A DNA stretch of 64,000 bases from positions 57,974 through 121,973 of the forward strand of contig JACOXU010000003.1 in NCBI GenBank assembly GCA_016182185.1, read 5' to 3'. The translations under genes and the position numbers were made by a program. The first letter of the stretch is position 1. Every line of letters begins with the position of its first letter. Source of the DNA: Candidatus Levyibacteriota bacterium. GTDB lineage: Bacteria; Patescibacteriota; Microgenomatia; Levybacterales; UBA12049. The notes below the pieces were generated by a model. It had not been told where the DNA came from, did no database searches, and saw only the letters and a program-made list of their open reading frames with translations. Shown in pieces: positions 6,119-36,864 of this stretch.

Positions 6119-7260
6119 TTGGGATTAATTCTAATCACTCTATCGTCCGAGGTATCAGGCGTTCCTCTTCCATCCCGATTGCTTGTAGTTATATAAAGCA
6201 TGTTATCACTACCTAAAACTACTTCTCTTATTCTGCCGAACTGGCTTTTGAAATGTTTTTTAAGTTCAATATTATCCCCCTTTACGACTGCCTCATATAA
6301 AGTTTCTCCTCGAAGGCCTGCGAAAAATATTGAATTTTCAAGAATTGCCATACCAGATGGCGCCCAGGTTTCAGTCGGTCCTGAGTGAAGTTTGGGAATC
6401 TCCATTCCGCTTCTTGCCTTATCTCCTTCAATCGTGGGCCAGCCGTAATTTTTGCCAGGCTCGACAAGATTTAACTCATCAAATCCTGATAAAACTCCTG
6501 ACCGACCATGTTCGGTTGCCCAAAGTCTTCCCTGATTGTCCCAGGCAATCCCCTGTGGGTTTCGATGTCCGTAAGAATAAACTAAATTATTAAAAGGGTT
6601 TCCCGAAACAGCTTTTCCTTCATCTGTCACTCTGAGAATTTTTCCTGCCAAAGAATTAGTATTTTGCGCTTGAGAAGAATTTTGAGCATCGCCTGTTGTT
6701 ATATATAAATTTTTATCCGGTCCGAATTTAATTCTTCCGCCGTTGTGATTCGATGCCCCCGGAATTCGATCGACGATAACTTGCTCATTTTCTAACTTAT
6801 TGTCTCGGTAGACCATTCTTGCAACTCTGTTAAACGTGTTGTTTGTATTTGCGCTATAAGTGTAGTAAAAATAGACAAAATGATTCGAAGAAAAATTTGG
6901 GTGAAGTGCAATTCCTAAGAGTCCTCCCTCTCCGATTTCCCTGACCTGATTAAATACTGCCACAGGCTTTGGATCAAGCATGCCGTTACGATTAATAAGT
7001 CTTACTTGTCCTTTTCGCTCGGTAACCAACATACTATTGTCAGGCAAAAACGTAATCCCCCAAGGAGTATCTAGGTTTCCTGCAATAACTTTGACTTTCT
7101 CATTTTCATCAATCTTAATAGACTGCGAGCTTGTTTCTTGTTTCTGATTTATCCTTAAAGGAGATTGGGTCTTATTTCTAATAATAAAAAAAACTAAAAC
7201 CAAAATAACCAATAGCAATCCAAAAATAATAAATTTAATTTTCATATTCTTTGAGGACAT
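6115..7260 (-). CDS. PQQ-dependent soluble sugar (glucose/sorbosone) dehydrogenase family protein
   Basis: PWGITFLPDNSMLVTERKGQVRLI, GLLGIALHPNF, NHNGGRIKFGPDKNLYITTGD and GHRNPQGIAWD are hallmark SGDH beta-propeller motifs. Confidence 0.8.
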   Translation of the reverse strand: MSSKNMKIKFIIFGLLLVILVLVFFIIRNKTQSPLRINQKQETSSQSIKIDENEKVKVIAGNLDTPWGITFLPDNSMLVTERKGQVRLINRNGMLDPKPVAVFNQVREIGEGGLLGIALHPNFSSNHFVYFYYTYSANTNNTFNRVARMVYRDNKLENEQVIVDRIPGASNHNGGRIKFGPDKNLYITTGDAQNSSQAQNTNSLAGKILRVTDEGKAVSGNPFNNLVYSYGHRNPQGIAWDNQGRLWATEHGRSGVLSGFDELNLVEPGKNYGWPTIEGDKARSGMEIPKLHSGPTETWAPSGMAILENSIFFAGLRGETLYEAVVKGDNIELKKHFKSQFGRIREVVLGSDNMLYITTSNRDGRGTPDTSDDRVIRINPN

Positions 7261-7290
7261 TATAGCAGAAGATTAAATTGAAAATTTTCC

Positions 7291-7510
7291 TTCAAAAATA
7301 AACATCTTGCTTATTTTCAAAGGAAAAGAGAGAAGAAATTTTGTTGAGGTACGAAGACCAGCAAGTACAGACGCATTTGTCTGATGTGCAGTCTTAGTAA
7401 CTAGACAAAATTTGAGATCTTCTCTCTGTGATGGAATAAGTTGTTTGGTGGTGGTTTGTCATGCATATCGCAAGAGAGCAAGAGGGGGGAAACTCTCACA
7501 TCTGCGTCAA
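7291..7510. repeat. conserved AT-rich arm (downstream/3' side of cargo gene), copy 1; homologous to 22800..23050
   Basis: About 70-80% identity by eye to 22800..23050. Shared blocks CTGCTTATTTTCAAAGGAAAAGAGAGAAGAAAT, CAGACGCA(T/A)TTG(T/C)CTGA and CTTCTCTC. Ends in AGAGGGGGGAAACTCTCACA. Confidence 0.6.
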
Positions 7511-8395
7511 TGCAGCTGAATCACCAGGCTATTGCCCGAGGGGGTGAAATGACAACACCTAGTTCTTTCAGCCGAAACTGTCAGCGAAGCGCTCGCATCG
7601 CCGTCAAAGGGAGGTGAACCAGCGCGCAAGCGCTACTGTCGGGAGTGACTGTCTGGCGTCGGCGTGCTCAGGAACTGGCGGCAGAAGTGCCGGCAAGCCG
7701 ATCAGAGAAAAACACCCCTGCCTTTCCGCATCGCCGATGCAGGCCGTAGGTTAACGCAGTGCCCAGAACAACAGCTGCAATGATGGTCAGCTGAAGTGAC
7801 TGTGCATAACGAAGGATGTCGACGACGTCGCCGGTAATCGATGAGACGATCCAGCTGTCACGCAGGCTCGTTGGCGTCTGCGGAATCGTAGTAACTGGAG
7901 AGTCCCGAGATGAGCCGGTGATCGAAGAGTCAAGACCCACGTCATTGGTTAATGGACTATGAGCCATGCTCATGGCGCCGATGTCCGTGCAGTCGTGCGA
8001 TCCGCATGAAGCAGCCGTGTTGTCAGCAATGTCGGCGCTGTTGCGGATAGAGTCGTCCAGACCCTGACCTGACGTGAACGGGTGTAATATTCCCTGGGAC
8101 ACGTCCAGATTGACGATGGTCGCCTGAGACGAACTGGCGAGAGAGACTTCGGGACTTGCTCTGGCTTGCGGAGTCAAATGCTGACTGGGCATCAAAGCGA
8201 AGAAGCCGCAGATAGCAGCAAGTGCCACACACGCCATGAGTCCAAGAAGAGATCTCCCCTGTCGACATCTTACTGTCTCAAAGGACATAAGACCTCCTGT
8301 TACGGACCTGTCGGGATTGATATATTAAATTGTGATGAATCCGATAAACACCTCCGTATTGTGAATTTGGTGCAAATGCAAGAGTTCCCCCCGCC
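7481..8395 (-). mobile_element. GC-rich cassette-like island 1, bounded by inverted repeats AGAGGGGGGAAACTCT / AGAGTTCCCCCCGCC (putative; mobility unproven)
   Basis: Sharp GC shift (about 55-60% against about 35% in the flanks). A 12-bp inverted repeat sits at the inner boundaries. The same architecture with different cargo recurs at 23026..24281. Confidence 0.4.
7668..8288 (-). CDS. hypothetical membrane protein (cargo of island 1)
   Basis: 206-aa ORF with N-terminal and C-terminal hydrophobic helices. AGGAGGT lies 4 nt before the ATG. In GC-rich DNA long ORFs arise by chance, so coding status is uncertain. Confidence 0.4.
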   Translation of the reverse strand: MSFETVRCRQGRSLLGLMACVALAAICGFFALMPSQHLTPQARASPEVSLASSSQATIVNLDVSQGILHPFTSGQGLDDSIRNSADIADNTAASCGSHDCTDIGAMSMAHSPLTNDVGLDSSITGSSRDSPVTTIPQTPTSLRDSWIVSSITGDVVDILRYAQSLQLTIIAAVVLGTALTYGLHRRCGKAGVFFSDRLAGTSAASS

Positions 8396-8556
8396 AATTG
8401 ACAAGCCTTGTCAAAAAGCGGGGAAAACCTTACCCGCACTCAATTCATCACACTTATTCCAAATTTCAATGTGCGATTTGTTTTTTCCTGAAATACATCT
8501 GCAAATAGATGTACCAGAGCAAAAACAATTAATAGTCAACTATAATATAACACAAA
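8381..8556 (-). promoter_or_regulatory. conserved upstream arm/leader of island 1: TGTTATATT -10-like box, ~170-nt conserved leader with dyad TTGACAAGGCTTGTCAA, then the inverted repeat
   Basis: Homologous to 24266..24432 (TGTTATAAT, TTGATAAAGTTTATCGA). Lies upstream of the cargo-gene RBS in both islands. Confidence 0.45.
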
Positions 8557-8621
8557 TTATCCTAAATCAACAGGCATTTTGAGATTCTTGACTTAAATAT
8601 TAGAAGGTATATAATTCAGCT

Positions 8622-9146: not shown

Positions 9147-10000
9147 GCTGTTCTTGCCTGAAGACTAAGAAGTGTAAGATTATTTGTTATCAAGCCGTCT
9201 GCACCGTTTCCCAAAACTCTAAGCGCTTGCCTTGCTGTCTTTACCACATAGACAAAAACTGTTCCTCCTGCTTCATGAAAACGACTAATATTCTCTTCCG
9301 ATGCAACTTCTGCGTCAAGAGAAATTCCAAATGGACCGTCGGGAAACCCGTCATGAACGAAAAAGGTATCTATGTTTCTCTCGTTTTGAATAGTATAAAA
9401 AAGATTTGAAGCGTCTCCTCCCTGCTTTTCTCTAACTTGCCCCAATGCCGACCATGCCTCGCCACTAAAAACCGCATCGGAGATTTGATTTTCTTCAAGA
9501 ATATCAAGCACCGGCCCTGGCGAATCAGTGTCCTTAAAATCAATAAGCACTTTATAACCATCTTTTTTAATTTCCTGAATCACTGTGGAAAGCTTGCGGC
9601 TCGGTCTTGAAAGAGTAATAGAGCCCTGGGAGCGATCCAATCCAACCCCTGCAAAATATTCTTCATGCCCTACATAGACTTTGCCACGATAGGTATAAGC
9701 ATCAGTTTCAATAAAATTACAGCCGGTTCGCTTAAATTGTCTGTAAAAAGGTCTTAAGTTTCCTCCGTTGTGAGCAACTGTCTCGAATCCTTCGTATTTG
9801 CTAAGTTCGTCAAAAGTTATTTGGTCAATTCTCTCGAAGGTTGGCTGTTCGGGGCTAATTGCGGGAAATCCGAAGACTTTCGCTACAAAATAAATACTAG
9901 CACCCCCCTCCGCTATTTTTACTCCCCTTCCCAGGAATACTCTTCTGGTTTCTTTTTTAGAGAATGAATTCGGAAAAAACCGAGAATTTTCCGCTCCCAT
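9143..10000 (-). CDS. glycerophosphodiester phosphodiesterase (GDPD)-like family protein
   Basis: VAHNGGN and ETDAYTYRGKVYVGHEE resemble the GDPD HR(G) and E-D motifs. C-terminal GADGLITNN is GDPD-like. Divergent. Confidence 0.45.
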   Translation of the reverse strand: MGAENSRFFPNSFSKKETRRVFLGRGVKIAEGGASIYFVAKVFGFPAISPEQPTFERIDQITFDELSKYEGFETVAHNGGNLRPFYRQFKRTGCNFIETDAYTYRGKVYVGHEEYFAGVGLDRSQGSITLSRPSRKLSTVIQEIKKDGYKVLIDFKDTDSPGPVLDILEENQISDAVFSGEAWSALGQVREKQGGDASNLFYTIQNERNIDTFFVHDGFPDGPFGISLDAEVASEENISRFHEAGGTVFVYVVKTARQALRVLGNGADGLITNNLTLLSLQARTA

Positions 10001-10021
10001 ATTTATAATAATTTCTTAAAA

Positions 10022-10294
10022 TTAGCCAACAATTGAGGCGTTTTGAAAAAGTATGCTGTACATCAACGCATCTTCCGCTTTTCTCATGATATCTTTTTCT
10101 ATATTTATTTTATCGAGAGTATTTAGTATTTTCCTTATATAAGGCTTGACCGCTTCCTTATCGATTTCGTTTCGTCGCGCAAACGCTTCTTTCAGGAACC
10201 TTTCTGCCATTCTTATCGAGCCTCTCTGGTAACCTATGGCTACGCGCTCTAAATCCATCGATAGAGAGGATAATGAGATAAAGGTTTTGTTCAT
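10022..10294 (-). CDS. hypothetical protein (possible HEPN-like partner)
   Basis: 90-aa ORF overlapping the upstream gene by 4 nt (ATGA), suggesting translational coupling. Confidence 0.4.
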   Translation of the reverse strand: MNKTFISLSSLSMDLERVAIGYQRGSIRMAERFLKEAFARRNEIDKEAVKPYIRKILNTLDKINIEKDIMRKAEDALMYSILFQNASIVG

Positions 10295-10629
10295 AAGATC
10301 TCTTCAAAAAAGTATTTCATGAGTTTTTCAAATTCTTTTCTTGTCTTTTCATTATGAATCTCATTACTTCTATTGCTATCGCTCGGACGGATATTAATGA
10401 AGGATTTAAAATCGATAACTTTTGTCTCCAAATCCAGTCCTCCACCCCATAAATCTGACTGATGAGAACCACCTTCCAATAATATTTTTTCAGAGTCAAA
10501 ATGACGATCACAGCCTGCAGAGCAAATTTTTCTTTTGATATCTATAACTGTTTTTATGTAAATTTCAAACTGCTCCTGCAATTGCTTAATCTCGTCTTTT
10601 GTGAACGGCTTATCTTTAGTTATAACCAC
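10291..10629 (-). CDS. hypothetical protein (possible minimal nucleotidyltransferase-like)
   Basis: 112-aa ORF. LLEGGSHQSDLWGGGLDLE faintly resembles the GS...D.D NTase signature. Weak. Confidence 0.4.
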   Translation of the reverse strand: MVITKDKPFTKDEIKQLQEQFEIYIKTVIDIKRKICSAGCDRHFDSEKILLEGGSHQSDLWGGGLDLETKVIDFKSFINIRPSDSNRSNEIHNEKTRKEFEKLMKYFFEEIL

Positions 10630-10676
10630 AAGACTATTATAACAAACTGTGTAAACTGCGCCAAAAGTAGAGAAAA

Positions 10677-11057
10677 TTATTTTTCTAAATATTTCTTAAG
10701 AGGGCCTAAATAATATCGCTTCCAACCATCATCTATGTCATCATGCTCATCATCTGGAACGTTCTCATGAACAAGCTCTACTTTGGTCTTTCCTTCTTTT
10801 TCAGAAAGTACAAATCTTACTATCGATGGTTCCTTCCAATCCCCGCCAAACCAATCTTGTTGCAATAATTTATTTTTTTCCACTTTGGTATTTGTACCGT
10901 GGACTTCCCCGCCCCAAAGTGAAAATTTCGTACCTACTTTATCATCCATTTTGGCAGGACCCGCTCCCCATTTGTCAATTTCTTTGGGGTCAACAAGCGC
11001 TCGCCAAACCCGCTCAACAGAAGCATTAATCAAATATTCCTGCCGAATGGTTTTCAC
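10677..11057 (-). CDS. SRPBCC superfamily protein (AHSA1/Aha1-like activator of Hsp90 ATPase domain)
   Basis: INASVERVWRALVDPKEIDKW matches the AHSA1/SRPBCC N-terminal pattern. About 126 aa. Confidence 0.75.
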   Translation of the reverse strand: MKTIRQEYLINASVERVWRALVDPKEIDKWGAGPAKMDDKVGTKFSLWGGEVHGTNTKVEKNKLLQQDWFGGDWKEPSIVRFVLSEKEGKTKVELVHENVPDDEHDDIDDGWKRYYLGPLKKYLEK

Positions 11058-11119
11058 AAGACCATTATACCACGGAGAGGAAAGAAGCCCTTTGATAACT
11101 CAGGCATTCTGTAGAAAAA

Positions 11120-11325
11120 TTACTGACTACTGATGGAAAATTTGGGATCCTTAGGGTCAAAAGCGTTTATATTTTTCGTAGCATCTAAAATCTCAATTCC
11201 CAAAACTTTTCCCTTCTTATCTTCATCCATTAAGATAGCATCGGAAATTTTCCGCGTACTCTCATATCCCCCTTTGCTAATTCAATATATACTGCGTCAA
11301 CTTTTGTATCGTATTTAAATTTCAT
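11120..11325 (-). pseudogene. DUF2283-family gene disrupted by a frameshift at a G5 homopolymer
   Basis: Reading frame 1 gives MKFKYDTKVDAVYIELAKGD... An alternative frame continues ...STRKISDAILMDEDKKGKVLGIEILDATKNINAFDP, the DUF2283 signature, to a TAA at 11120. Frame switch at GGGGG near 11255. Confidence 0.5.
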
Positions 11326-11339
11326 ATTATTATTCTATC

Positions 11340-11540
11340 ATTTTAATTCGGCAATCCGTATGTCGAATGCATGAGAGATTAAATGAGCGCATCAGGGGGA
11401 ACCCGAGAACTTCGGAGGGGGTGTTATCACCCGATAAGCGAGTTTAATCTTAAAAGCATGAGGCAAGGCTTGGCGAGAGCTTTTGCTTCTTTTCTCGGCA
11501 GAAAAGAGGAAGATTCACATGTTCCGAAAATATAACCGGC
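11340..11540 (-). pseudogene. possible decayed DUF4258-like gene remnant upstream of the DUF2283 gene
   Basis: Short broken frames MPVIFSEHVNL... and ...KIKLAYRVIT... resemble the DUF4258 N- and C-termini. Directly downstream of a TGGTATAAT promoter at 11546..11560. Low confidence. Confidence 0.3.
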
Positions 11541-11545
11541 ATGAG

Positions 11546-11560
11546 GAAATTATACCACGC
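11546..11560 (-). promoter_or_regulatory. extended -10 promoter GCGTGGTATAATTTC (copy 1 of 3)
   Basis: The 15-mer GAAATTATACCACGC (plus strand) recurs at 12194..12209 and 12693..12707, each just upstream of a minus-strand gene start. TGnTATAAT consensus. Confidence 0.55.
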
Positions 11561-11574
11561 CCAAATTTCGAATA

Positions 11575-12144
11575 TTATGGTTCTTCGTGATATTTATCTC
11601 TGAAATCTTGTTTTGCCTTTTCGACTGCTTTTCTTTGCTCTGAAGATGTTGCAGGAAAAATTCCGTCTCTCCTATTTTCATGGAGGAATTCCCTTGCTAA
11701 TGCCTTTGCATTGGCGGGATCAAATATTCCACTTGATTCGGCATTATCAATTTTCAAGAAATCAGCAAGCGCTTTATACGGCAGACTACCTGTTCCCCAA
11801 ACTGATGTTTCCCTAAATATTCCTCCCAATATTTCCTGCACTCCAAGCGGCATACCAGAATATACAAGCAATGCTTGAAATCTACCATTCAAAACATCCG
11901 TCAACTCAGAACCCTCCCTTCTCGCCATTGAAGCTAAGGCTTTTACCACCCTGCTAATATCGCTTGTATCTGGATCAGGGACTGGCAACCCTAAGGCATC
12001 CGATAACTGATCCACATCTACATCAGTCGCTCTCCCCTCGGAAAACGCAGTGGATGGTATCAACTTAAAAAGAGATCTAAGCTCTCCTTGAAGTTCCTGC
12101 GGGGTTGCTCGGGAATAATCTTTCTCGCCTTCGTGCTGCTGCAT
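11575..12144 (-). CDS. hypothetical protein
   Basis: 189-aa ORF. TGGTATAAT promoter about 55 nt upstream. Confidence 0.5.
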   Translation of the reverse strand: MQQHEGEKDYSRATPQELQGELRSLFKLIPSTAFSEGRATDVDVDQLSDALGLPVPDPDTSDISRVVKALASMARREGSELTDVLNGRFQALLVYSGMPLGVQEILGGIFRETSVWGTGSLPYKALADFLKIDNAESSGIFDPANAKALAREFLHENRRDGIFPATSSEQRKAVEKAKQDFRDKYHEEP

Positions 12145-12193
12145 ATTGAGGCTTGTATTTTAAAACTATTCTGCTTTAATTGCAAATGGCGAG

Positions 12194-12209
12194 GGAATTA
12201 TACCACGCC
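12194..12209 (-). promoter_or_regulatory. extended -10 promoter (copy 2), overlapping the stop codon of the upstream kinase gene
   Basis: GGCGTGGTATAATTCC on the minus strand. The TAA stop of 12198..12737 lies inside the TATAAT. Confidence 0.5.
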
Positions 12210-12737
12210 CTTTATTCTGTCTGCTGTCTCCTCCAGCGTTAATTCCGTACTGTCAATCTTCTCATCAAATTCCTTCAGCTTACCTTGCTCCATATGAAGA
12301 ATTTTTACCCTTTCTTCTTCAAGAGTAAAATCTCTCGACTTATTTCTTTTTAAAGTTTCTTCAAGCGTTGGCAGAAGCAAAACTATTTTTGGATTAAATT
12401 GTGAAAGACTTTCTTTGTATATTCTTGCTATCTCATCTGTTATAACATCAAGAATAATTACATCAAACCCTTCAGCGATAAAATTTTTTGTCAAAATACA
12501 AGCATTTCTTATTCCCAAAGCAACTTGTTTTTGTCCTTCTTCACCGTCCCACGGAGCTCGATGAGGCTTTGTAATCATATGACGGACAGTATCGACGTCA
12601 ACTATCGCACACTTTTTTCTTTCCGATGACAATATTTTAGAAACTGTATTTTTCCCTGCTCCGGCAGGTCCAGTAAGAATCAACAACATAAAGAAATTAT
12701 ACCACGCTGCTTTATACTGAGCGAAACCGAAGTACAA
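12198..12737 (-). CDS. P-loop NTPase / small-molecule kinase-like protein (AAA_33 or zeta-toxin-like fold)
   Basis: Walker A LILTGPAGAGKNT. The likely true start is MLLILTG at 12689, only 7 nt after the TATAAT (leaderless). Confidence 0.6.
   Translation of the reverse strand: MYFGFAQYKAAWYNFFMLLILTGPAGAGKNTVSKILSSERKKCAIVDVDTVRHMITKPHRAPWDGEEGQKQVALGIRNACILTKNFIAEGFDVIILDVITDEIARIYKESLSQFNPKIVLLLPTLEETLKRNKSRDFTLEEERVKILHMEQGKLKEFDEKIDSTELTLEETADRIKGVV
12693..12707 (-). promoter_or_regulatory. extended -10 promoter (copy 3), immediately upstream of the kinase-like gene start
   Basis: GCGTGGTATAATTTC followed by the ATG at the position expected for a transcription start. Confidence 0.45.
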
Positions 12738-12754
12738 AAGAAGCAGAGAATTAC

Positions 12755-13498
12755 CTACCTGCCCTGCTTTCTTTTCTCTATTGCACGCATTAACTGTTTA
12801 AATTCAATCGAAGGCTTCTTTTTACTCCATGGCATTTTTTTATCAAGCACCAAAGGTAGACTAAATATACCCCTTATTCCCCTAAGACGCGATTTAATGT
12901 CTTTGGATGACTCTCCTAGATAACTCTTATAAAATTTTAACTTCTCTCTTGCCTTATTTATTAATAAGTCCAAATTTTTTACTATATATTTATTCTTTAA
13001 AAATCCCTGTTTGGGTCGTATAAATTTTCCCTTTACAAATTCAACATATAATGAATTATTTCTAGCCCTCAATAATTCTTTACTCTCTTCGTCGGAAATT
13101 TTAAACATGTTAGTAATTTGTTCTAAATTAAACTCTTTAAAAGTTGTTAAACCATGGGATAGCTTTCGTGAATGCCTGACATAATTATTCTCAAACATTT
13201 TCCTTTTTCTTCGTCGAGAGTTAAAATTTATTTCAATTAATGTTGCTTCTGTATGCAAGAAGTCAATCTTACTAAGTTCTTCAATTGCAGTAGCAACATA
13301 AATTACGGATCTCTCCCTTTTACCTTTTTTTATTAAAAAATCGCATATATCCAGAAGCTCTTCAACGTTTTTCATTAGTTTTTTAATTGCGCGAGCACAA
13401 TCCAGCATGGATAGTCCCTCAAAAACTGGAAGTTGAAGAAATTTCTCGTCTGATTTATCAGTTATTATTTTAAGTCCTTTTTTTCTGTATACTCTCAT
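12755..13498 (-). CDS. hypothetical protein
   Basis: 247-aa Lys-rich ORF. TTGATT-17-CATAAT promoter at 13500-13545 with a short leader. Confidence 0.5.
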   Translation of the reverse strand: MRVYRKKGLKIITDKSDEKFLQLPVFEGLSMLDCARAIKKLMKNVEELLDICDFLIKKGKRERSVIYVATAIEELSKIDFLHTEATLIEINFNSRRRKRKMFENNYVRHSRKLSHGLTTFKEFNLEQITNMFKISDEESKELLRARNNSLYVEFVKGKFIRPKQGFLKNKYIVKNLDLLINKAREKLKFYKSYLGESSKDIKSRLRGIRGIFSLPLVLDKKMPWSKKKPSIEFKQLMRAIEKRKQGR

Positions 13499-13553
13499 CT
13501 CTGATGAGGGAAATTATGCGCTGGTTGGGGTGGAAAATCAAGCAGTTCTTGTT

Positions 13554-13928
13554 TTATTTGAAATATTTCTGAAGACCATCAGGAATCACTATCGCACCGC
13601 CCAAGATTGATCGCTCTCTGTCGTCGTACGGTTTGGGCTGAAAAATTACAGCATTAGCACCAACCTCTTCAAGTGTTCCAACAATATCTATTCCCATTTC
13701 ATGCATGAAGCTGGTAAATGACCGCAAATCAAATGGTTTTTCTTCTGTTATCTCAACCCTTATTGCATGTGGCTTCTTTCCTTCTGTCTGCCACCGATGA
13801 ATCCCTTCCAAAGCAATTGCAACAGCATTTTTTTCACGATCACCTAGATTTTCAAATGTTTCCAGTTGCTCGGAGCTTACAATTCCAAAATTCCTTCCTG
13901 CTTCCATAATAAGGTAGAAATATACCAA
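13554..13928 (-). CDS. hypothetical protein
   Basis: 124-aa ORF. The upstream region has the same TTGATTTTCCACC motif as the preceding gene. Confidence 0.45.
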   Translation of the reverse strand: MVYFYLIMEAGRNFGIVSSEQLETFENLGDREKNAVAIALEGIHRWQTEGKKPHAIRVEITEEKPFDLRSFTSFMHEMGIDIVGTLEEVGANAVIFQPKPYDDRERSILGGAIVIPDGLQKYFK

Positions 13929-13979
13929 AAATCAAAATTAAAATCAAGGGTTAGGGTGGAAAATCAAGCAGAATTAATT

Positions 13980-14237
13980 TTATCCATAAAGATTGCTGTG
14001 TTTATCAAGCACAATAAACAATACCGAATCTTTTTCTCTTCTAAATATTGCCCGTAAGTCTCCTGAAATATTTATACTCCTAAAACCCTTATATTCTCCG
14101 GTTAAGGCGTGATTATTGAGAATCGGACTAAATTCATCTTGTAGGAACAGGTTTCTTCTTTCTTTGAATTTTTTCTTTTGAGATTTAGTTAGTTTATTAT
14201 AGTCTTTGACAAACTTTCTGTGAGCGCGGATAGTCAT
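13980..14237 (-). CDS. yafQ: type II toxin-antitoxin system toxin, YafQ/RelE family mRNA interferase
   Basis: LNNHALTGEYKGFRSINISGDLRAIFRREKDSVLFIVLDKHSNLY is the canonical YafQ pattern. 85 aa. Confidence 0.75.
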   Translation of the reverse strand: MTIRAHRKFVKDYNKLTKSQKKKFKERRNLFLQDEFSPILNNHALTGEYKGFRSINISGDLRAIFRREKDSVLFIVLDKHSNLYG

Positions 14238-14620
14238 TGTGAGTCGAGGAATTTATCCATTTCTTCAGGAGTCTCAAACGGTCCGAAAATATTGCGATTG
14301 TGCTTTATGTCTTCCTCAACTTTTGCAATTATTTTTTCAAGCTCGGGAGTCATACGGGGAGTATGAGAAAAAATAACCTCTCTAGTTCTTATGAAATTTC
14401 GAAGAGATGCATTAATAACATCACTAAGGGTAAGTCCGAGCTCTTTAGCTGCCTTTTGAGCATTTTCCTTTACTTCTTTATCTGATTTTATATGAATAAC
14501 AGTCTGCATAATATCTAAAGTATATACACTGGATACACAATTGTCAATAACAAAAACGTGAAAAAGTTGATAAAAGCAATGTATTATAATAGTAGCATGA
14601 AAGTTGCGATTGTTGTGCAT
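14234..14620 (-). CDS. dinJ: type II antitoxin, DinJ/RelB family (RHH); the true start is probably the internal Met (MQTVIHIKSDKEV...)
   Basis: MQTVIHIKSDKEVKENAQKAAKELGLTLSDVINASLRNFI matches the DinJ N-terminal ribbon-helix-helix. ATGA overlap with the toxin gene. Confidence 0.65.
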   Translation of the reverse strand: MHNNRNFHATIIIHCFYQLFHVFVIDNCVSSVYTLDIMQTVIHIKSDKEVKENAQKAAKELGLTLSDVINASLRNFIRTREVIFSHTPRMTPELEKIIAKVEEDIKHNRNIFGPFETPEEMDKFLDSQ

Positions 14621-14824
14621 CCCAATTCGAAAAAACCAAGAATTGAAAAAGATCTCTTAGATACTCTTCATGTTTATGTAAATCAACCTCCTCTTGAAGG
14701 ACGGGCAAACAAAGCAGTAGCTGAATCACTGGCGGAATATTTTAAAGTAAAAAGAAATTGCGTAAAGCTTCTGTCAGGAGAAAAATCAAAAAATAAACTT
14801 TTTGATATTAAAAAAAATCAATAA
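14558..14824 (+). CDS. DUF167 (YggU/UPF0235) family protein
   Basis: VAIVVHPNSKK...LHVYVNQPPLEGRANKAVAESLAEYFKV...VKLLSGEKSKNK fits the DUF167 consensus. The start is probably MKVAIV at about 14597. Confidence 0.7.
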   Translation: MKKLIKAMYYNSSMKVAIVVHPNSKKPRIEKDLLDTLHVYVNQPPLEGRANKAVAESLAEYFKVKRNCVKLLSGEKSKNKLFDIKKNQ

Positions 14825-21590: not shown

Positions 21591-22787
21591 ATGGTATATT
21601 TTGATATGATGAAATCAATTTTACCTTTTGGAAAAATTGGGATTAAAAATAAAAAAACTTTCTATCGATTTTTACTGGACCATATACTCGCAGTTGTCTT
21701 GCCTCTAGCAGGTCTTGTTCTTGCAATGCAAATTGGTCCTCCCTTTACAACCAGCGCATCATATCTTTTTTTCGCGCCTCTTGTTGCCCTAAGTGCATGG
21801 AATGGCGGGGTAAGTGCCGGGACTCTCTCAACTATTATTGGGGCAGCTGCAATGTATTACTTCTTTTTATCCCCGGAAAAATCTCCTTTAGTATTTGATC
21901 TTTATGATGTTATTCAAATTATTTTAGTAATAATAGAAGGTACCTTTATAAGTTTTCTTATAGACATTGGAAAAAGAAAAGATAAAACACTTGAGTACAA
22001 AAAACTAATTAGAGAGCTCCGTATGGAAGTAGTAAATCTTGAAGAGGAGAGTAAAAAACGTTTAAATGAACTTAGATCGCGGGACGAATTTATTTCTATT
22101 GCTTCTCATGAGCTCAAGACCCCCCTCACATCGATGCTTCTTCAAACACAAACGGCTCTTCATAATATCCGCAATGTTTCACTTGCGCATTTCTCTATTG
22201 AAAGTCTTCTCAAAATGCTTGAAAGTGTTGAAGATCAAACAAAAAGACTTTCAAAAATGATTAATGATTTGCTTTCTGTTTCTGTAGTCGCAACCAGAAA
22301 AATTAATCTTGAATATGAAAAAATTGATTTTAATAAGTTGGTGGAGAACGTTTTGAACGACTTCTCTGAGCGAATAAGACGCGAAAATTATGTAGTAATT
22401 TATGATGCAAAAGAAAAGATCACTGGTAATTGGGATAAGATAAGAATAGCGCAGGCAATTTCAAACTTAATTTCAAACGCAATTAAATATGGCGATCACA
22501 AGCCAATTCAAATAAAGTTAAGAAAAAATCGAAGCTTTGCAGAGTTTATCATAAAAGACGAGGGCATTGGGATCTCCAAACAAAATCAGAAATACATATT
22601 TGATCTTTTCCGAAGGGGCATTTCCAATAATCAATACAAGGGTTTGGGAGTCGGACTTTATATATCAAAGGAGATAATCAAAGCGCATGGGGGAAAAATC
22701 GAAGTAACAAGTAAGTTAGCTAAGGGAACAAAATTTACAATTAAACTTCCACTTGGAAAATTGCAACAAAGCCCTGAGAATAATTGA
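21591..22787 (+). CDS. membrane sensor histidine kinase (HisKA + HATPase_c)
   Basis: H-box SHELKTPLTS, N/G boxes NLISNAIKYG...GLGVGLYISKEII, and N-terminal TM helices. Confidence 0.8.
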   Translation: MVYFDMMKSILPFGKIGIKNKKTFYRFLLDHILAVVLPLAGLVLAMQIGPPFTTSASYLFFAPLVALSAWNGGVSAGTLSTIIGAAAMYYFFLSPEKSPLVFDLYDVIQIILVIIEGTFISFLIDIGKRKDKTLEYKKLIRELRMEVVNLEEESKKRLNELRSRDEFISIASHELKTPLTSMLLQTQTALHNIRNVSLAHFSIESLLKMLESVEDQTKRLSKMINDLLSVSVVATRKINLEYEKIDFNKLVENVLNDFSERIRRENYVVIYDAKEKITGNWDKIRIAQAISNLISNAIKYGDHKPIQIKLRKNRSFAEFIIKDEGIGISKQNQKYIFDLFRRGISNNQYKGLGVGLYISKEIIKAHGGKIEVTSKLAKGTKFTIKLPLGKLQQSPENN

Positions 22788-22799
22788 CATAAATTCTCC

Positions 22800-23050
22800 T
22801 CCAAAAACAAACACCCTGCTTATTTTCAAAGGAAAAGAGAGAAGAAATAATGAAAGGTAACGATGACCAGCTTGATTCAGACGCAATTGCCTGAGTAGCA
22901 GTCAAGGAAACCTGACAAAATTTTGTGAGCCTTCTCTCCTGGTAAATGTAATGGGAATAAGTTTGCATTGGAGTCTCCTTTCGGATTAACATGGCTGTTA
23001 ATTGATCCGCCAAACGCAGAGATTTGAGAGGGGGAACTCTCACACCTGCA
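22800..23050. repeat. conserved AT-rich arm (3' side of cargo gene), copy 2; homologous to 7291..7510
   Basis: See copy 1. Ends GAGAGGGGGAACTCTCACACCTGC, immediately followed by the stop codon of the fbp-like gene. Confidence 0.6.
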
Positions 23051-24281
23051 CTAGCGGGGTTGTTGCTCCGTCTCGGGCGGAGGAGGTGAACCTGCAGGTA
23101 CAGGTTGCACCCTTGTGGTAGAAGCCGCTTCCTCATCGGATAGTGGCGTCCATCGGTCGGCGAGCTTTTTGGCAACGTCCGGCATGGTTGTGTATTCCAT
23201 CTCCTCCAAGGGAAGACGGTGGGGTTCGAATGGTCCGTGCTTACGCAGGTAGTCGGCGATATCGTTGGCCTCCTGGCGGACGTTGTCAAAACCCGGGTCG
23301 TCGAACATGTCGTTCGGGCCAATAAGCTTGCCGTTTGCAAGCTGAAATCCCAGCGACACGAGTCGCGGCGGGCCGTCGAAGCGGCTCGGGTGTGCGTCTT
23401 TCAAGCCAACAGGCATAAGCGGCCCATGGTGGGATCCGCGCATCCAGCCCTCAACTGTCCACGCAGTGGTGAACGGTTCGAGCACTTCGCCCACAGCCGG
23501 GAAATTTCCCTGACAGCGAACGATCATGGTCGGGTCGTCCTTGCCAACGTAGCGGCCGGCAATCATGGACAACTTGTCCGTGCTGGAACACGCAGCGATC
23601 TCACCGGAGTCACGATGGCGCACGCGCTTTACGGCGTAACGCTGTCCAGAACCGATGAAGACGAGCATGTCGTAGATCTCATCCGGCGCGTTAAGCGTGA
23701 CCTGCAGGTGCTCCTTGACGTCCTGGACTTCGAAGGAAAACCCTCCATGGAGTGGCGCTCCGATAACGAGCCCCGGCGTGTTGAACGGATCCGCGAACAT
23801 CTTGTAGAGCGGCAGGTTGAAAGCTCCGGCTGAGGTCTTGTCGCCCATGAAGACGATGATTGGCTCTGACGGCCGCTCGTCGATCTCCATTTCGGCCGAA
23901 CCGGGACCTGCTCCCTTGATGTTACCGCTGAATGCGTCCGTCAGAAGGTCCTGGCCTGCGCCGTAAAGCTTGAGCTTCTTGGCCAGTTCCGTACCCTTGA
24001 CAAACGTGTCCCACGCCAACTTGTGGATCTCTGTGTTGTTCTCGCCACGATCGTGAGTCATGATGAGAAACATGTCGTCTCCACAGTGGCTGACGTGACA
24101 ATCGACAAGAACTCCGGCCTGCTTTGCCTTCTCCAGCTCTTCACGACCGAGGTCGAGAATATCCGGATGAGACGAGCAGTGGCCGACCATTCCGCCGATA
24201 TCCGCTTTTATGACAGAAATTGTAACCAAAATTCCTCCTTGTTAGCTTTTGAATGGTGTAGATGTAAGAGTTCCCCCCGCC
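23026..24281 (-). mobile_element. GC-rich cassette-like island 2, bounded by the same inverted repeats as island 1 (putative; mobility unproven)
   Basis: GGGGGAACTCT at 23031..23041 and AGAGTTCCCCCC at 24267..24278. Cargo GC is about 60%. Confidence 0.4.
23051..24229 (-). CDS. fbp: fructose-1,6-bisphosphate aldolase/phosphatase (class V FBPase, archaeal-type bifunctional)
   Basis: N-terminal MVTISVIKADIGG and internal YKMFADPFNTPGLV, WMRGSHHGPLMPV, RFDGPPRL and EMEYTT are signature motifs of FBP aldolase/phosphatase. AAGGAGG lies 5 nt upstream of the ATG. Confidence 0.85.
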   Translation of the reverse strand: MVTISVIKADIGGMVGHCSSHPDILDLGREELEKAKQAGVLVDCHVSHCGDDMFLIMTHDRGENNTEIHKLAWDTFVKGTELAKKLKLYGAGQDLLTDAFSGNIKGAGPGSAEMEIDERPSEPIIVFMGDKTSAGAFNLPLYKMFADPFNTPGLVIGAPLHGGFSFEVQDVKEHLQVTLNAPDEIYDMLVFIGSGQRYAVKRVRHRDSGEIAACSSTDKLSMIAGRYVGKDDPTMIVRCQGNFPAVGEVLEPFTTAWTVEGWMRGSHHGPLMPVGLKDAHPSRFDGPPRLVSLGFQLANGKLIGPNDMFDDPGFDNVRQEANDIADYLRKHGPFEPHRLPLEEMEYTTMPDVAKKLADRWTPLSDEEAASTTRVQPVPAGSPPPPETEQQPR

Positions 24282-24432
24282 ACTCGATAAACTTTATCAA
24301 AAGACGGGGAAAACCCTACTCTACCCAATTCATTTTCCAACTTATTCCATTACTTTTTAATGTGCAAAATGTTTACACCTTTTTGTACCAGCGATATAGA
24401 TACAGAAGATGAAAAACAAAATATTATAACAT
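24266..24432 (-). promoter_or_regulatory. conserved upstream arm/leader of island 2 (TGTTATAAT, dyad TTGATAAAGTTTATCGA, inverted repeat)
   Basis: Homologous to 8381..8556. Confidence 0.45.
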
Positions 24433-24450
24433 ATGATTTCACTTAGAAGA

Positions 24451-25428
24451 TTATTTTCTCTGAAAATAGTCGTAGGCGGCCTTGGAGACTTGAGCAATTA
24501 TTTCATTTGCTTCAAGTATTTTTTTAGTTTTTGTAAGAACTACTATTATATAATCTCCCCGACTAGTATAAACAATCCCTGCGTCATGCGAATATTCTCC
24601 CAACTCTCCAGTTTTATGGGCAACTATAGAATTTTGCGGTAAATATTTAGGAAGCTTACTGTTTAATTGTTGATTTTTTAAAAGCGCAAGCATTTCTATT
24701 GTGTTTTCATTTAGGTTTTTATTATCTTTATAAAGTTTTTCCAAAAATAAAGCCGTATCATATGCACTTGTAGTCGGCGATCCTCCTACTGTCCCTATTT
24801 TTGATTCATTGAGACCTTCAAGATTTAAATAAGAAGTGACACTTGAAAGTCTTATCTTTTCCGTAAGTAAAAGCGCCGAATAATTATCAGAAATTGTAAT
24901 CATCCGTCTTAGGGCTTCGCCCACCGGAAGCGTGATTTCCCCTTCTGTCAGCTCTGCGGATTCTGTGGCAATCTTAAATTTCTCATTCAGGACTTCAATT
25001 TTTTCTGTAAGCACATCTGTTTTTTTAAGCCTGCCTTCTTCAATCTGCTCAAAGACGACAGACATTATCCAGAGTTTATAAAGACTGGCGGTTTCGAACA
25101 ATTTATGCTCATTGAATGAATAATTTTCATTGGTTTTAAGATTAATAACAACCACGCTATAATCCCCTGCTTTATTTTTTAAAATATTATTTATAATAGT
25201 GTTAAGTTGATTTCCACGACCAAAGGTATCACGAAATGGAATACTTGAGAAAATTAAAGGATTTGCAAGCGGAGATATCAAGGGAGAATTGGTAAATTTT
25301 CCCAAAAAAGCAAAGAATAAGAAAAATAAAGAAATAAAAACTACAAATATAAAACTTATAAGACGGATTAATTTTTTTCCTGCACTTCTCTCACGTCTGA
25401 GACGGTAGACATACTGGTCATGCTGCAT
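24451..25428 (-). CDS. serine hydrolase, class A beta-lactamase / penicillin-binding-protein-like
   Basis: SxxK (TASLYK), SDN (ISDNYSA) and KTG (AHKTGE) motifs in the correct order. N-terminal TM. Confidence 0.65.
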   Translation of the reverse strand: MQHDQYVYRLRRERSAGKKLIRLISFIFVVFISLFFLFFAFLGKFTNSPLISPLANPLIFSSIPFRDTFGRGNQLNTIINNILKNKAGDYSVVVINLKTNENYSFNEHKLFETASLYKLWIMSVVFEQIEEGRLKKTDVLTEKIEVLNEKFKIATESAELTEGEITLPVGEALRRMITISDNYSALLLTEKIRLSSVTSYLNLEGLNESKIGTVGGSPTTSAYDTALFLEKLYKDNKNLNENTIEMLALLKNQQLNSKLPKYLPQNSIVAHKTGELGEYSHDAGIVYTSRGDYIIVVLTKTKKILEANEIIAQVSKAAYDYFQRK

Positions 25429-27224: not shown

Positions 27225-27656
27225 TTACCTTGAGGCAGAGATATTTGGTGACCCTTCAGTACCGCAAGCTTTTACTGTAACAAGACCGGCAGCATTTACC
27301 ACAACAGAATATCCTGTTAAAGCAGCTGTGCCATTACTCGGATCTAATGGAATAGAATTGAGATAATTAGCAAGAGCACCGCTAAGATCTACACAGCCAT
27401 TAGTAGCTCCTACGTTGCAGCCACCTGTTGCAATAGCGCAATTAGCAGCTGTAGGTTCAGTACCGATCTGTTTTTCGACCATGCCGGCCGTAAGGCCAGA
27501 AGGAAGAGCACCAGCATTGTCTACGATTGAGGCATGAATGGCAGTCAAGATACTTTGAGTATCAGAAACTCTCTTGGCATCTCTTGTATCCTCGAGTCTT
27601 TGGGCAGGATTTAAGGCTACAAAGACCACGACTGCCAAAACTGCGATAATTGCCAT
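27225..27656 (-). CDS. type IV pilin-like protein lacking a prepilin leader (paralog A)
   Basis: Starts MAIIAVLAVVVFVALNPAQRLEDTRDAKRVSDTQ, corresponding to pilin helix residues ~7 onward. The first ~110 nt of coding sequence are identical to paralog B. Confidence 0.6.
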   Translation of the reverse strand: MAIIAVLAVVVFVALNPAQRLEDTRDAKRVSDTQSILTAIHASIVDNAGALPSGLTAGMVEKQIGTEPTAANCAIATGGCNVGATNGCVDLSGALANYLNSIPLDPSNGTAALTGYSVVVNAAGLVTVKACGTEGSPNISASR

Positions 27657-27700: not shown

Positions 27701-28132
27701 TTATCTTGAAGCAGAAATTGTGGTTGCTCCTTCAGTACCGCAGGCTGTCACTGTCACAAGTCCTGCAGCACTGACCACTACGCTGTAACCTGTTTCTGCG
27801 GCTGTATAGGTGGTTCCTCCCGTTGGATCGATTGGAATAGTATTCAAGTAATTGGCAAGAGGAGTAGTTAGATCAACACATCCGGTTGGAGTTATCGAAC
27901 ACACGCCCACTGTTCCTCCGCAACCGGTTGCCGCTGTTCCGATTTGAGTCTGTGACATGCCTGCAGTAAGGCCAGAAGGAAGAGCACCAGCATTGTCTAC
28001 GATTGAGGCATGAATAGCGGTAAGAATTGTTTGGGTATCAGAAACTCTCTTGGCATCTCTTGTATCCTCGAGTCTTTGGGCAGGATTTAAGGCTACAAAG
28101 ACCACGACTGCCAAAACTGCGATAATTGCCAT
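27701..28132 (-). CDS. type IV pilin-like protein lacking a prepilin leader (paralog B)
   Basis: Identical N-terminal 36 aa, divergent C-terminus. TTGACA-18-TAATAT promoter with the ATG 7 nt after the -10 (leaderless). Confidence 0.6.
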   Translation of the reverse strand: MAIIAVLAVVVFVALNPAQRLEDTRDAKRVSDTQTILTAIHASIVDNAGALPSGLTAGMSQTQIGTAATGCGGTVGVCSITPTGCVDLTTPLANYLNTIPIDPTGGTTYTAAETGYSVVVSAAGLVTVTACGTEGATTISASR

Positions 28133-28601: not shown

Positions 28602-29141
28602 TTAATTACTCCTTATCTCTGCATCACTGCTTATGCTTGTAGACGCATTATTCTGATTTCCTGACCCAAATTTTGAAGTGACTGTCAGGATAAACTGGAT
28701 ATTTTTTGTTTTGTAATCAGACGAAGAGTAATTGGTAAATTCAAGATTTGTATAGGTATTTCCTGAATTAAGCGGAACAAAGCTACCAGTTCCTTGCCTT
28801 ACCAAAACTTGTCCTCCTCCGCCTCCAATAATCCATGTAGGATTCGTGGCTGGATTTGAAGTATTAAGTATTATCATTGTTGGGAAGAAAGCGCTGACTC
28901 CCGTCGCATTTCTCACTTCGTATTTAAGTCTTTCTGCTATGTAACGCGCCTGAGAATTCACTTCCTGCTGTACTGCGCTTTTGCGGCTTGATAAAATCAT
29001 ATCCCAGGAAAAAGGTATTATTGTAACCAGCATCATTACAAATATTGACACATATAGAATAAGCTCTATAAAAGTGAAGCCTTTTTGATTATTTAATAAT
29101 TTATTACTGTTATTTTTCATTATTCTGTCAGATTCCTCCAA
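28602..29141 (-). CDS. prepilin-type N-terminal cleavage/methylation domain protein (minor pilin)
   Basis: ...NQKG|FTFIELILYVSIFVMML is a canonical class III signal. Confidence 0.65.
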   Translation of the reverse strand: MEESDRIMKNNSNKLLNNQKGFTFIELILYVSIFVMMLVTIIPFSWDMILSSRKSAVQQEVNSQARYIAERLKYEVRNATGVSAFFPTMIILNTSNPATNPTWIIGGGGGQVLVRQGTGSFVPLNSGNTYTNLEFTNYSSSDYKTKNIQFILTVTSKFGSGNQNNASTSISSDAEIRSN

Positions 29142-31081: not shown

Positions 31082-31572
31082 CTGCTTGCCACCCCCTGAC
31101 TATTTACAGTTATCGTCTTTGTTTCTGAATTTCCCTGAATTGAAATACTGCCGGAAGAAGGATCTGGCAAGCCTGTCATTCTTGCAAATAAAATATCTGT
31201 CGTCCCTGTTATGGAAATATTCGGATTTACAGTGAATTTTTCATCTAAAGCCTGATTCCTAAGAGCAAAAGAGGTTCCGCTGAAAAGTGTGATCGTACCT
31301 GTTGCGTAATGTACACCCCAATTATTTGAATTTTTACTCATCATAGCGTACATCTGGGCTTTTCTTAACGATCCGATATATTGATCCTGAACGTCTGAAA
31401 CCGTATTCTGAATCAGGAAATTGGTGTAAAAATTTGCCGAGAAAGTTCCGATCAGAAGAAAAATTGCTGTTGTTAATATCAATTCGATTAAAGTGAACCC
31501 CAATCGGGATTTAGGACCTGCCTTGCCGACAGGCAGGTTTATGATATACGATTTATGATTTTCTTTATCCAT
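31078..31572 (-). CDS. type IV prepilin (candidate major pilin) with long leader
   Basis: ...GPKSRLG|FTLIELILTTAIFLLIG, a canonical G/FTLIE class III signal peptide. Confidence 0.7.
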   Translation of the reverse strand: MDKENHKSYIINLPVGKAGPKSRLGFTLIELILTTAIFLLIGTFSANFYTNFLIQNTVSDVQDQYIGSLRKAQMYAMMSKNSNNWGVHYATGTITLFSGTSFALRNQALDEKFTVNPNISITGTTDILFARMTGLPDPSSGSISIQGNSETKTITVNSQGVASR

Positions 31573-31605
31573 TCCATCTTAATTCTTAAATCTTAATTCT
31601 TATTT

Positions 31606-35177: not shown

Positions 35178-35220
35178 TATTAAAACTATCTAAGATTATA
35201 CATCTTTTTAAATAAAATAT

Positions 35221-36842: not shown

Positions 36843-36864
36843 CTCCTTCCTTTAGAATAAAAAT

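Follow-up and report, generated by a model that had tools for sequence, protein, structure and literature searches.

Integrons consist of a gene for the tyrosine integrase IntI (intI), an attI site and a common promoter, and in their cassettes a promoterless open reading frame (ORF) is followed on the 3' side by attC, a palindrome of 57-141 bp with GTTRRRY cores. In the Xer-dependent pdif modules of Acinetobacter plasmids, cargo is bounded by inverted short sites and no recombinase is adjacent. In the icaR mRNA of Staphylococcus aureus, a C-rich motif in the 3' untranslated region (UTR) pairs with the 5' UTR, which blocks initiation and triggers cleavage by RNase III. In the precursors of 16S and 23S rRNA, a leader-trailer helix encloses a payload of 1-3 kb and contains an RNase III site; two leader helices interrupt it, and boxB, boxA and boxC come before it (PMC10250234). 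Here, a 64-kb stretch of DNA (the window) is analysed from Candidatus Levybacteria, a groundwater member of the Candidate Phyla Radiation (CPR), which has an AT-rich genome of about 37% GC. The window contains two loci in which unrelated, GC-rich ORFs (the cargos) are held between homologous, AT-rich arms. The arms are predicted to pair with one another as RNA, forming a leader-trailer scaffold that is referred to as the frame, and the cargo inside it has been exchanged.

Copy 1 (7285-8552) and copy 2 (22794-24431) are both read from the minus strand. An earlier reading of the letters alone (the sequence-only reading) had described two loci of the same architecture at these places, with unrelated, minus-strand genes, and this description holds. 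The 3' arms (7260-7530 versus 22770-23070) align with a mean column identity of 77% and include an invariant block of about 32 nt, while the 5' arms (8280-8620 versus 24220-24480) align at 74% column identity. A repeat search, which recovers both pairs of arms, found no third arm copy in the 64 kb. When GC content is followed in 500-nt bins, it is 0.57-0.60 in two islands (7.5-8.3 kb and 23.0-24.2 kb) and 0.31-0.46 in the remaining bins that are clear of islands and arms. The ORFs themselves have a GC content of 0.557 (cargo 1) and 0.580 (cargo 2) versus 0.34-0.39 for neighbouring genes, which bears out the GC-rich cargo noticed earlier. The GC-rich part of copy 2 coincides exactly with the ORF, and that of copy 1 also takes in approximately 150 nt of 3' UTR and an extra 60 nt or so of 5' UTR.

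The sequence-only reading also placed a 12-bp inverted repeat at the inner edges of the arms. A repeat is present there: GGGGGGAACTCT, with at most one mismatch, has four matches in the window, one per cargo edge, where 0.18 are expected, and none of 100 shuffles reached four. Its length is 18-25 nt instead of 12. Arm conservation extends slightly inside this repeat, on the 5' side up to AAGGAGG and on the 3' side from about 10 nt before the repeat.

Two additional units with the same arms were reached via the closest homologues of cargo 2. One is in the AT-rich genome GCA_040960375.1 (L016) and has a cargo that is 95.6% identical in protein to cargo 2. The other is in an AT-rich metagenome-assembled genome (MAG) labelled 'Patescibacteria group' (L024), and its cargo is 80% identical to cargo 2. 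Cargo 2 is a fructose-1,6-bisphosphate (FBP) aldolase/phosphatase, and in all three genomes a Beta-lactamase2 gene is found upstream of the FBP unit; purB is directly downstream in L016 and L024.

The four copies, which come from three Levybacteria genomes, were compared using constructs in which the cargo was deleted and the leader of each copy was joined to its trailer. All four constructs fold separately to a common architecture. The RNAalifold consensus comprises 95 pairs in 12 helices, and 13 of the pairs have compensatory double changes. Here, 95.5% of the consensus cells are paired; sliding the partners by 1-3 columns lowers this to 48-58%. For covariation, the alignment scores 0.319 and shuffled alignments 0.247, and not one of 500 shuffles reached the higher value. 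In addition, the mini-construct of copy 2 has a minimum free energy (MFE) of -154 kcal/mol, with z = -8.6.

From 5' to 3', the frame opens with an extended -10 promoter and hairpin H0, after which comes the motif GCACAUUGAAA, which is invariant and unpaired. The 5' strands of two helices follow, that of Pa first and that of Pb second, with hairpins H1 and H2 between them, and then a Shine-Dalgarno sequence and the ORF. Immediately behind the stop codon is the 3' strand of Pb, and beyond it are a variable spacer, the 3' strand of Pa, the Pc domain and a hairpin that was rated terminator-like by a terminator scan in both window copies. L024 and copy 1 have an additional 60-70 nt between AAGGAGG and the start codon. 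Helix Pa is a 10-bp pairing of leader to trailer found in all four copies, with strands UGGAAUAAGU (5') and ACUUAUUCC (3') and 97.5% of cells paired. Helix Pb, which was defined independently of the folding program, has 18 consensus pairs and extends up to about 25 bp in single copies. Its cells are 98.6% paired, its variation is all to G-U, and its duplex energy is -37 to -45 kcal/mol in every copy. As leader and trailer are predicted to pair through both Pa and Pb, the coding region would be looped out of a scaffold of approximately 400 nt. Hairpin H2 differs in sequence from lineage to lineage with its pairing kept; three pairs are changed on both sides and 100% of cells are paired. The nested 3' domain is closed by the Pc strands GAGAGAAG/CUUCUCUCU. 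As a prediction from these folds, a conserved, sense-strand leader-trailer RNA of about 400 nt, forming a stand-alone transcription unit around a single ORF, is firmly supported.

The strand on which the structure acts can be read from its mismatches. Among the non-Watson-Crick cells of the consensus there are 63 G-U and 8 A-C, and in Pb alone there are 10 and 1, respectively. Every sense-strand G-U reads as A-C on the opposite strand, and a site acting as DNA should favour neither, so these counts point to a sense-strand RNA. Consistent with this, the MFE of the sense strand is -150 to -168 kcal/mol versus -109 to -137 kcal/mol for the antisense strand (12-45 kcal/mol in favour of sense), and for the Pb duplex the advantage of the sense strand is 3-7 kcal/mol.

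The FBP cargo has the clearer origin. Cargo 2 matches PF01950 (FBPase_3), in agreement with the enzyme named in the sequence-only reading. Its identities to GC-rich homologues are 92% (P0002), 91% (P0003), 88% (P0009), 85% (P0033) and 82% (P0074). Apart from those of L016 and L024, all close homologues whose genomic context was examined are encoded in GC-rich genomes (64-66% GC; 65% for that of P0002) with a common DUF1122-FBPase neighbourhood and no arms. The names on this clade are Dehalococcoidia or Chloroflexota, and the 90% identity cluster of cargo 2 includes a Dehalococcoidia protein. The similarity of cargo 2 to donor DNA begins at the start codon. GC at third codon positions (GC3) is 0.63-0.68 in the FBP cargo, 0.89-0.93 in the donors and about 0.3 in native Levybacteria genes, so that the FBP cargo is intermediate. 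Cargo 2 is accordingly a xenologue derived from a GC-rich, Dehalococcoidia-like source, and its composition has moved part of the way towards that of its host.

The window and L016 enzymes share a C-terminal extension (..RVQPVPAGSPPPPETE) that is absent in the GC-rich relatives (23051-23110 in the window; 7070-7128 in L016). At the position of the L016 stop codon (TAG) the window has CAA, and the window ORF is 6 codons longer, ending in TAG. The last base of this TAG is the first base of Pb.

Cargo 1, which had been read as a hypothetical membrane protein, has no Pfam match and no similarity to cargo 2 or to the donor contigs. Its single homologue among 1.8 billion representative proteins is P0242 (36% identity over 180 aa). 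Codon-position GC periodicity is absent, and this flat profile prompted the idea of a non-coding RNA or dead pseudogene, which was dropped. Cargo 1 is kept as a gene because the ORF is open, it has a strong AGGAGG-ATG start, and the homologue has a conserved C-terminal region.

Evidence for exchange of cargo comes from the FBP units. In the FBP tree and by four-point distances, the window and L016 proteins group with P0002 and P0003 (92% and 91%), while the L024 protein groups with the GC-rich P0074 and P0116 (85% and 84%) and is only 80% identical to that of the window. The N-terminus, C-terminal tail and serine codon choice of L024 are those of its own donor clade. As genomes, L016 and L024 are the closer pair (purB 81% protein identity, with a four-fold site difference of 0.48; Beta-lactamase2 80%). 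Their arms are also the most similar pair, at 72% (77% in the 5' arm), with a common 50-nt hairpin insertion. The cargos of these two are 77% identical in protein by MAFFT and 80% in a trimmed alignment, with a saturated four-fold difference of 0.61. The window and L016 genomes are distant (cysteinyl-tRNA synthetase 74%, four-fold 0.72; Beta-lactamase2 52%) and yet their cargos are close, with a four-fold difference of only 0.37. In a sliding-window comparison, L016 is L024-like outside Pb and copy 2-like between the Pb strands. The replacement junctions are just inside the Pb loop, on the 5' side after AAGGAGG and on the 3' side at the stop codon. Copy 1 has the same frame around a third kind of cargo.

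As the history of the cargo disagrees with those of arms and genomes, cargo must have been replaced within the conserved frame at least once, in line with the exchange within arms that was suggested at the outset. That the ORFs in the frame are foreign and have been exchanged is firmly supported. A single ancient acquisition of the FBP aldolase/phosphatase was considered and rejected by the four-point distances, the tree and the donor-like termini and serine codons of L024. Allelic replacement by crossover within the ORF was likewise rejected, with donor-type sequence reaching both ORF ends.

Given the abrupt jump in GC and cargo protein identities of at least 90% to Dehalococcoidia sequences, GC-rich Chloroflexota reads might be thought to have been mis-joined into a Levybacteria contig. 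This possibility is rated as already refuted and can be set aside with near certainty. Six Logan contigs, assembled separately and representing five sequencing runs, are 100% identical across the junctions, as is the NCBI MAG, diverged orthologous units are present in two other projects, and the GC3 of the cargo has partly shifted from the 0.9 of the donors. Most of the Logan contigs end inside the block common to both 3' arms, which is what a short exact repeat would be expected to cause in a k-mer assembly.

The same swapping data bear on an explanation at the DNA level, in which the repeats are recombination sites or the ends of a non-autonomous element, and cargo enters by site-specific recombination or by transposition into a repeated target. 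Three cargos in the same arms (that of copy 1, FBP clade A and FBP clade B), the decoupled histories of cargo and arms, and the location, close to both strands of Pb, at which L016 changes from L024-like to copy 2-like sequence would all suit such a cassette. Against it, Pfam scans of about 45 window ORFs and the precomputed annotations for 8-18 kb contain no integrase, transposase, Xer-type or HUH enzyme, in agreement with the lack of a nearby recombinase noted in the sequence-only reading. The repeats are at the inner edges, no target-site duplication or array is seen, the G-U mismatches are confined to the sense strand, and the replacement junctions are in the loop and outside the repeat. 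Furthermore, the arms of copies 1 and 2 are 64-67% identical in four-way alignments and 74-77% in pairwise ones. Arms within one genome are thus about 33% diverged, which excludes recent transposition. We consider a DNA-level cassette unlikely. From the sequence-only reading, homologous arms with exchanged foreign cargo survive, and DNA-element repeat ends do not. The repeat is instead part of a long, sense-strand leader-trailer helix, the cargo boundary is inside the loop of that helix and not at the repeat, and no sign of recent mobility is seen, with arms that are about 67% identical in the four-way alignment, no target-site duplication and synteny kept at the FBP locus.

Table 1. Predicted features of the two window copies of the frame, listed from 5' to 3' of the transcript.
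Copy	Feature	Position	Strand	Remarks
1	-35-like TTGATT	starts 8570	-	consensus scan: TTGATT-17-TATTAT at 8570-8542
1	promoter, extended -10 box TGTTATATT	8544-8552	-	TGTTATAAT at the equivalent place in copy 2, L016 and L024
1	leader hairpin H0	8478-8528	-	predicted independently in all four copies; alifold helices 1-2, 4 pairs with compensatory changes
1	conserved unpaired motif GCACATTGAAA	8464-8474	-	one base varies across the four copies; unpaired in consensus fold
1	helix Pa 5' strand TGGAATAAGT	8452-8461	-	partner 7433-7441
1	leader hairpins H1 (GGG..CCCC then U run) and H2 (TTGACAAGGCTTGTCAA)	8398-8435	-	consensus fold
1	helix Pb 5' strand GGGGGGAACTCTTGCATTTGCAC	8370-8392	-	includes the 12-nt repeat of the sequence-only reading; duplex with 7484-7508, -39.6 to -40.7 kcal/mol
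1	loop-side 5' UTR	8289-8369	-	GGAGG conserved with the arm at about 8353-8357; the roughly 60 nt of additional leader beyond it contain a separate AGGAGG for the ORF at 8293-8299
1	cargo 1 ORF, 206 aa, 55.7% GC	7668-8288	-	hydrophobic N- and C-terminal segments
1	cargo 1 GC-rich 3' UTR (0.50-0.67 GC)	7509-7667	-	fine GC profile; absent from copy 2
1	helix Pb 3' strand GACGCAGATGTGAGAGTTTCCCCCC	7484-7508	-	duplex prediction and consensus fold
1	helix Pa 3' strand ACTTATTCC	7433-7441	-	duplex prediction and consensus fold
1	3' domain: Pc (GAGAGAAG / CTTCTCTCT) around nested hairpins	7285-7426	-	covariance model R1, 143 bits; helices 7-12
1	terminator-like hairpin	7285-7327	-	picked by terminator scan
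2	promoter, extended -10 box TGTTATAAT	24423-24431	-	conserved across copies
2	structured leader (H0 through Pb 5' strand)	24256-24419	-	alignment and consensus fold
2	motif GCACATTAAAA	24355-24365	-	conserved, unpaired
2	Pa 5' strand	24340-24349	-	consensus fold
2	H1	24306-24316	-	consensus fold
2	H2	24286-24298	-	consensus fold
2	Pb 5' strand	24256-24278	-	consensus fold
2	Shine-Dalgarno AAGGAGG	24234-24240	-	within conserved arm; TTG start 4 nt downstream
2	cargo 2, FBP aldolase/phosphatase, 392 aa, 58% GC, GC3 0.68	23051-24229	-	PF01950
2	Pb 3' strand GTGCAGGTGTGAGAGTTCCCCC	23030-23051	-	first base is the final base of the stop codon
2	trailer	22794-22962	-	covariance model R1, 135.8 bits
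2	Pa 3' strand	22954-22962	-	consensus fold
2	Pc domain	22836-22938	-	consensus fold
2	terminator-like hairpin	22794-22836	-	terminator scan

Copy 1 has pairings of its own. Positions 8328-8340 are complementary to 8443-8455 over 13 nt (92%; GUGAUGAAU / AUUCAUCAC), and this pairing, found in copy 1 only, would link the additional 5' UTR, which lies within the loop of Pb, to the part of the leader that adjoins the Pa strand on its 3' side. In addition, the G run of Pb in the copy 1 leader has an alternative partner in the C run of H1, and H2 would then become a longer hairpin at 8384-8428. These predicted alternatives suggest that other folds may form before the trailer is transcribed.

The layout in Table 1 also lends itself to another interpretation, namely that an ordinary cis-regulatory leader (a riboswitch or attenuator) and a terminator were duplicated together with a gene, and that the leader-trailer pairing is incidental. 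In H1, a U run comes after a short GC hairpin, as in an attenuator, and the 3' end is a plain terminator-like hairpin. However, the two cargos, one a gluconeogenic enzyme and the other a small membrane protein, are unrelated in function, and two separate leader-trailer helices are kept in all four copies despite arm divergence of about 35-40%. There are no Rfam matches at gathering thresholds in the 64 kb, and of the weak matches around the four copies none recurs between copies. A regulatory leader of this kind is accordingly judged quite improbable.

Alternatively, the arms could be the halves of a self-splicing intron or ribozyme with the ORF in a peripheral loop. Combined arms of about 330-400 nt and a stem-closed ORF fit ORF-bearing group I introns. 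But no sense-strand intron or ribozyme model matches any of the four copies at E <= 10, and the sole intron-family match is antisense, at 20 bits, to a plastid group II domain 5 model in L016 only. The units are intergenic, with their own predicted promoter and terminator and no interrupted host gene, and the cargo is metabolic, being neither a homing endonuclease nor a maturase. There is very little to recommend this reading.

Searches for further copies covered several collections. Degenerate and exact arm motifs gave only chance matches in genome, metagenome and viral contig collections, and a blastn search with the arms was negative in phage and plasmid collections. In L026, which holds the closest GSDH relative (75% identity), the locus is non-syntenic and without arms. 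Searches at either end of the window yielded short contigs only, without anything further. When a covariance model of the 3' domain (R1) was run on 225 kb of sequence, it recovered the four known copies and one weak match of 27.7 bits. The latter, at 4497-4641 of L024, comes immediately before the unit, where the preceding helicase gene ends, and consists of a CTTTGCGAATAAA...TTTGTTTCCTGAGG hairpin like the terminal hairpin of the unit. It may be a common terminator type of the lineage or a relic of another trailer.

Taken together, it is probable, if well short of certain, that the arms constitute a reusable leader-trailer expression frame, that is, a one-gene transcription unit in which a foreign, GC-rich ORF is held in a conserved, AT-rich structured RNA. 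The Pb duplex would act after transcription, most probably as the substrate of a double-strand-specific RNase of the RNase III type or as an end-protecting clamp. By analogy to pre-rRNA, such processing or clamping would fix the ends, stability and translation of a compositionally alien mRNA, and the conserved frame would let unrelated foreign ORFs be expressed. A change of cargo would be a rare recombination inside the Pb loop followed by selection, with the conserved arms possibly providing homology for exchange between related genomes. Candidate routes for the exchange are illegitimate recombination plus selection, homologous exchange via the arms and an RNA-mediated route.

Several points weigh against the expression frame. 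The known copies number four, in three related genomes, and wider pattern scans add none. Helices Pa and Pb (consensus helices 3 and 6) have one-sided G-U changes and no pair changed on both sides, so that both rest on complementarity kept over the divergence of the arms. Since the sense strand is the one on which the fold was predicted, part of the overall excess of G-U is built in. The start of the sense transcript, its 3' end and any cleavage are predictions, RNase III was not identified in the window, and the mechanisms of swapping are candidates only. Finally, if the frame also flanks native or stable RNA genes elsewhere in these genomes, the link to foreign cargo would change.

A refinement that is compatible with the expression frame concerns its source. 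Here, the arms would copy or mimic the flanks of a stable RNA gene of these bacteria, with a leader and trailer of the rRNA type, H0 as boxB, GCACAUUGAAA as boxA, the antitermination element that NusB/NusE bind, and Pa plus Pb as the split leader-trailer helix; the ORFs would be transcribed by an antitermination-modified polymerase and excised by RNase III. The unpaired motif, which is placed where boxA is found in rRNA leaders, by inspection resembles the Bacillus-type boxA (CAUUGAAA versus CUUUGAAA), and this counts in favour. But the likeness is partial, at 9 of 14 positions, which could be chance, and the payload is an mRNA that needs translation. Moreover, neither the window nor the other examined loci contain an rRNA or tRNA gene, and the search for tmRNA genes in the window was also negative. 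We regard a stable-RNA origin of the arms as doubtful.

More ambitiously, and with a modest chance of being right, the arms may be a dedicated platform for gene capture and expression in these ultra-small bacteria, one without a described counterpart, in which foreign ORFs from GC-rich neighbours or hosts are slotted precisely from start to stop codon into a standard RNA frame that is possibly derived from rRNA flanks. On this speculative reading, the frame would supply promoter, ribosome-binding site, protection of RNA ends and perhaps antitermination. The arms, or an RNA form by a processing or reverse-transcription route, would mediate the exchange of cargo between genomes, and the function would be integron-like, RNA-centred and without a dedicated integrase.

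CPR bacteria have tiny genomes and a metabolism that is patched with genes from other organisms. The frame bears on how a recipient of 37% GC comes to express a 65% GC gene whose donor was Chloroflexota-like. Acquired ORFs are not randomly scattered here, and are instead placed start-to-stop in one frame, which has served three separate cargos or more. Should it be this frame that makes foreign genes work, it would be a new route of domesticating horizontal transfer. It would also mean that mRNAs use a leader-trailer architecture otherwise known from rRNA, and would provide a natural, ready-made insulator for gene expression as well as a new family of large structured RNA that is searchable in other CPR genomes. 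A study of CPR gene transfer mentions neither the FBP enzyme nor the flanks (PMC7304191).

The surroundings of the two copies are ordinary chromosome, with genes for a type IV pilus, chemotaxis, two-component systems and tRNA synthetases, as well as recR and dnaX. A neighbouring sugar dehydrogenase and the cargo 1 protein are both 100% identical to NCBI proteins from a 190-kb contig of a Levybacteria MAG. Upstream of copy 1, the region 10000-14700 encodes a YafQ-type toxin, a HEPN_AbiV protein, a helix-turn-helix protein and several small ORFs without family, and looks like a variable toxin-antitoxin or defence region. On the minus strand, 29100-47300 carries type II/IV secretion ATPase and platform genes together with a full chemotaxis set (CheA, CheW, CheB, CheC/X, CheD and a methyl-accepting chemotaxis protein), several response regulators and histidine kinases. 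From its gene content, this cluster appears to be a notable motility and DNA-uptake repertoire for a CPR genome.

Two other kinds of repeat are found in the window. A family of about 115 nt with imperfect terminal inverted repeats is present at 56743-56857, 59118-59236 and 61020-61135, with a partial copy at 1537-1565 in a ychF-like gene. One copy is intergenic, and two are in frame inside unrelated essential genes (phosphoribosyl pyrophosphate synthetase and a dnaX-like gene). Here, they add an insert of about 40 aa, '(S/G)AEVA(R/H)ENFPVRNA..EIPKSD..ENF.S.PR', between recognised domains. One copy has a long hairpin fold (z = -5.5), and the other two are without it. Rickettsia palindromic elements insert in frame, and the family is reminiscent of them. 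Separately, 27225-27656 and 27701-28132 form a tandem duplication with a period of 476 nt, at most 90% identical, which corresponds to two adjacent ORFs of 143 aa; the one that was scanned (27225-27656) has no Pfam match.

How the frame relates to known systems can now be stated. Like ORF-bearing group I and II introns, it loops a protein ORF from a stem in a conserved structured RNA; unlike them, it has no host gene, splice-site context, consistent family match or mobility protein. By the standards of transposons and miniature inverted-repeat transposable elements, outer terminal inverted repeats and a flanking direct repeat are lacking, the inverted repeats are internal (Pa and Pb), and the arms within the genome are not near-identical on either the four-way or the pairwise figures given above. 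No reverse transcriptase domain, which would mark a retron or diversity-generating retroelement, is encoded among the neighbours in the window, L016 or L024.

The frame and integron cassettes have in common single foreign ORFs with minimal flanks, a standard slot, differing cargo and imperfect inverted repeats. Unlike integrons, the units show neither intI nor attI and form no array; they are separated by 15 kb, and each is preceded by a predicted promoter of its own. Moreover, the repeats flank the ORF at a distance of 0.9-1.2 kb from one another instead of forming an attC behind it, the junctions contain no GTTRRRY, and the G-U pattern, being strand-specific, indicates RNA. The resemblance to pdif modules is that discrete cargo is found between inverted copies of a short site without an adjacent recombinase. 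In contrast to those sites, the repeat lacks the XerC-spacer-XerD layout, is chromosomal and is supported as an RNA helix.

The closest parallels are between the ends of RNA molecules. As in icaR, a C-rich stretch of the 3' UTR (UUCCCCCC) pairs with a G-rich stretch of the 5' UTR beside the ribosome-binding region. The helix of the frame differs in being much longer, in leaving the Shine-Dalgarno sequence uncovered, and in belonging to a multi-helix scaffold that is conserved around unrelated genes across genomes. As in pre-rRNA, the frame is predicted to pair the flanks of a payload, here about 1-1.5 kb long, through at least 18-25 bp, with a helix that is interrupted by two small leader hairpins, and a promoter-proximal hairpin and an unpaired box upstream; the GC content of the payload is also above that of the genome. 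A pre-rRNA helix is expected to have >17 bp between the payload flanks, and the predicted Pb has this. The frame departs from pre-rRNA in that its payload is a translated, foreign protein gene and not a stable RNA, the Shine-Dalgarno sequence is just inside the helix, and the trailer has an extra folded domain of about 150 nt and a terminator of its own. Pairing of leader and trailer (5' and 3' UTR) is thus of a known type, and what is new is its application to horizontally acquired protein genes.

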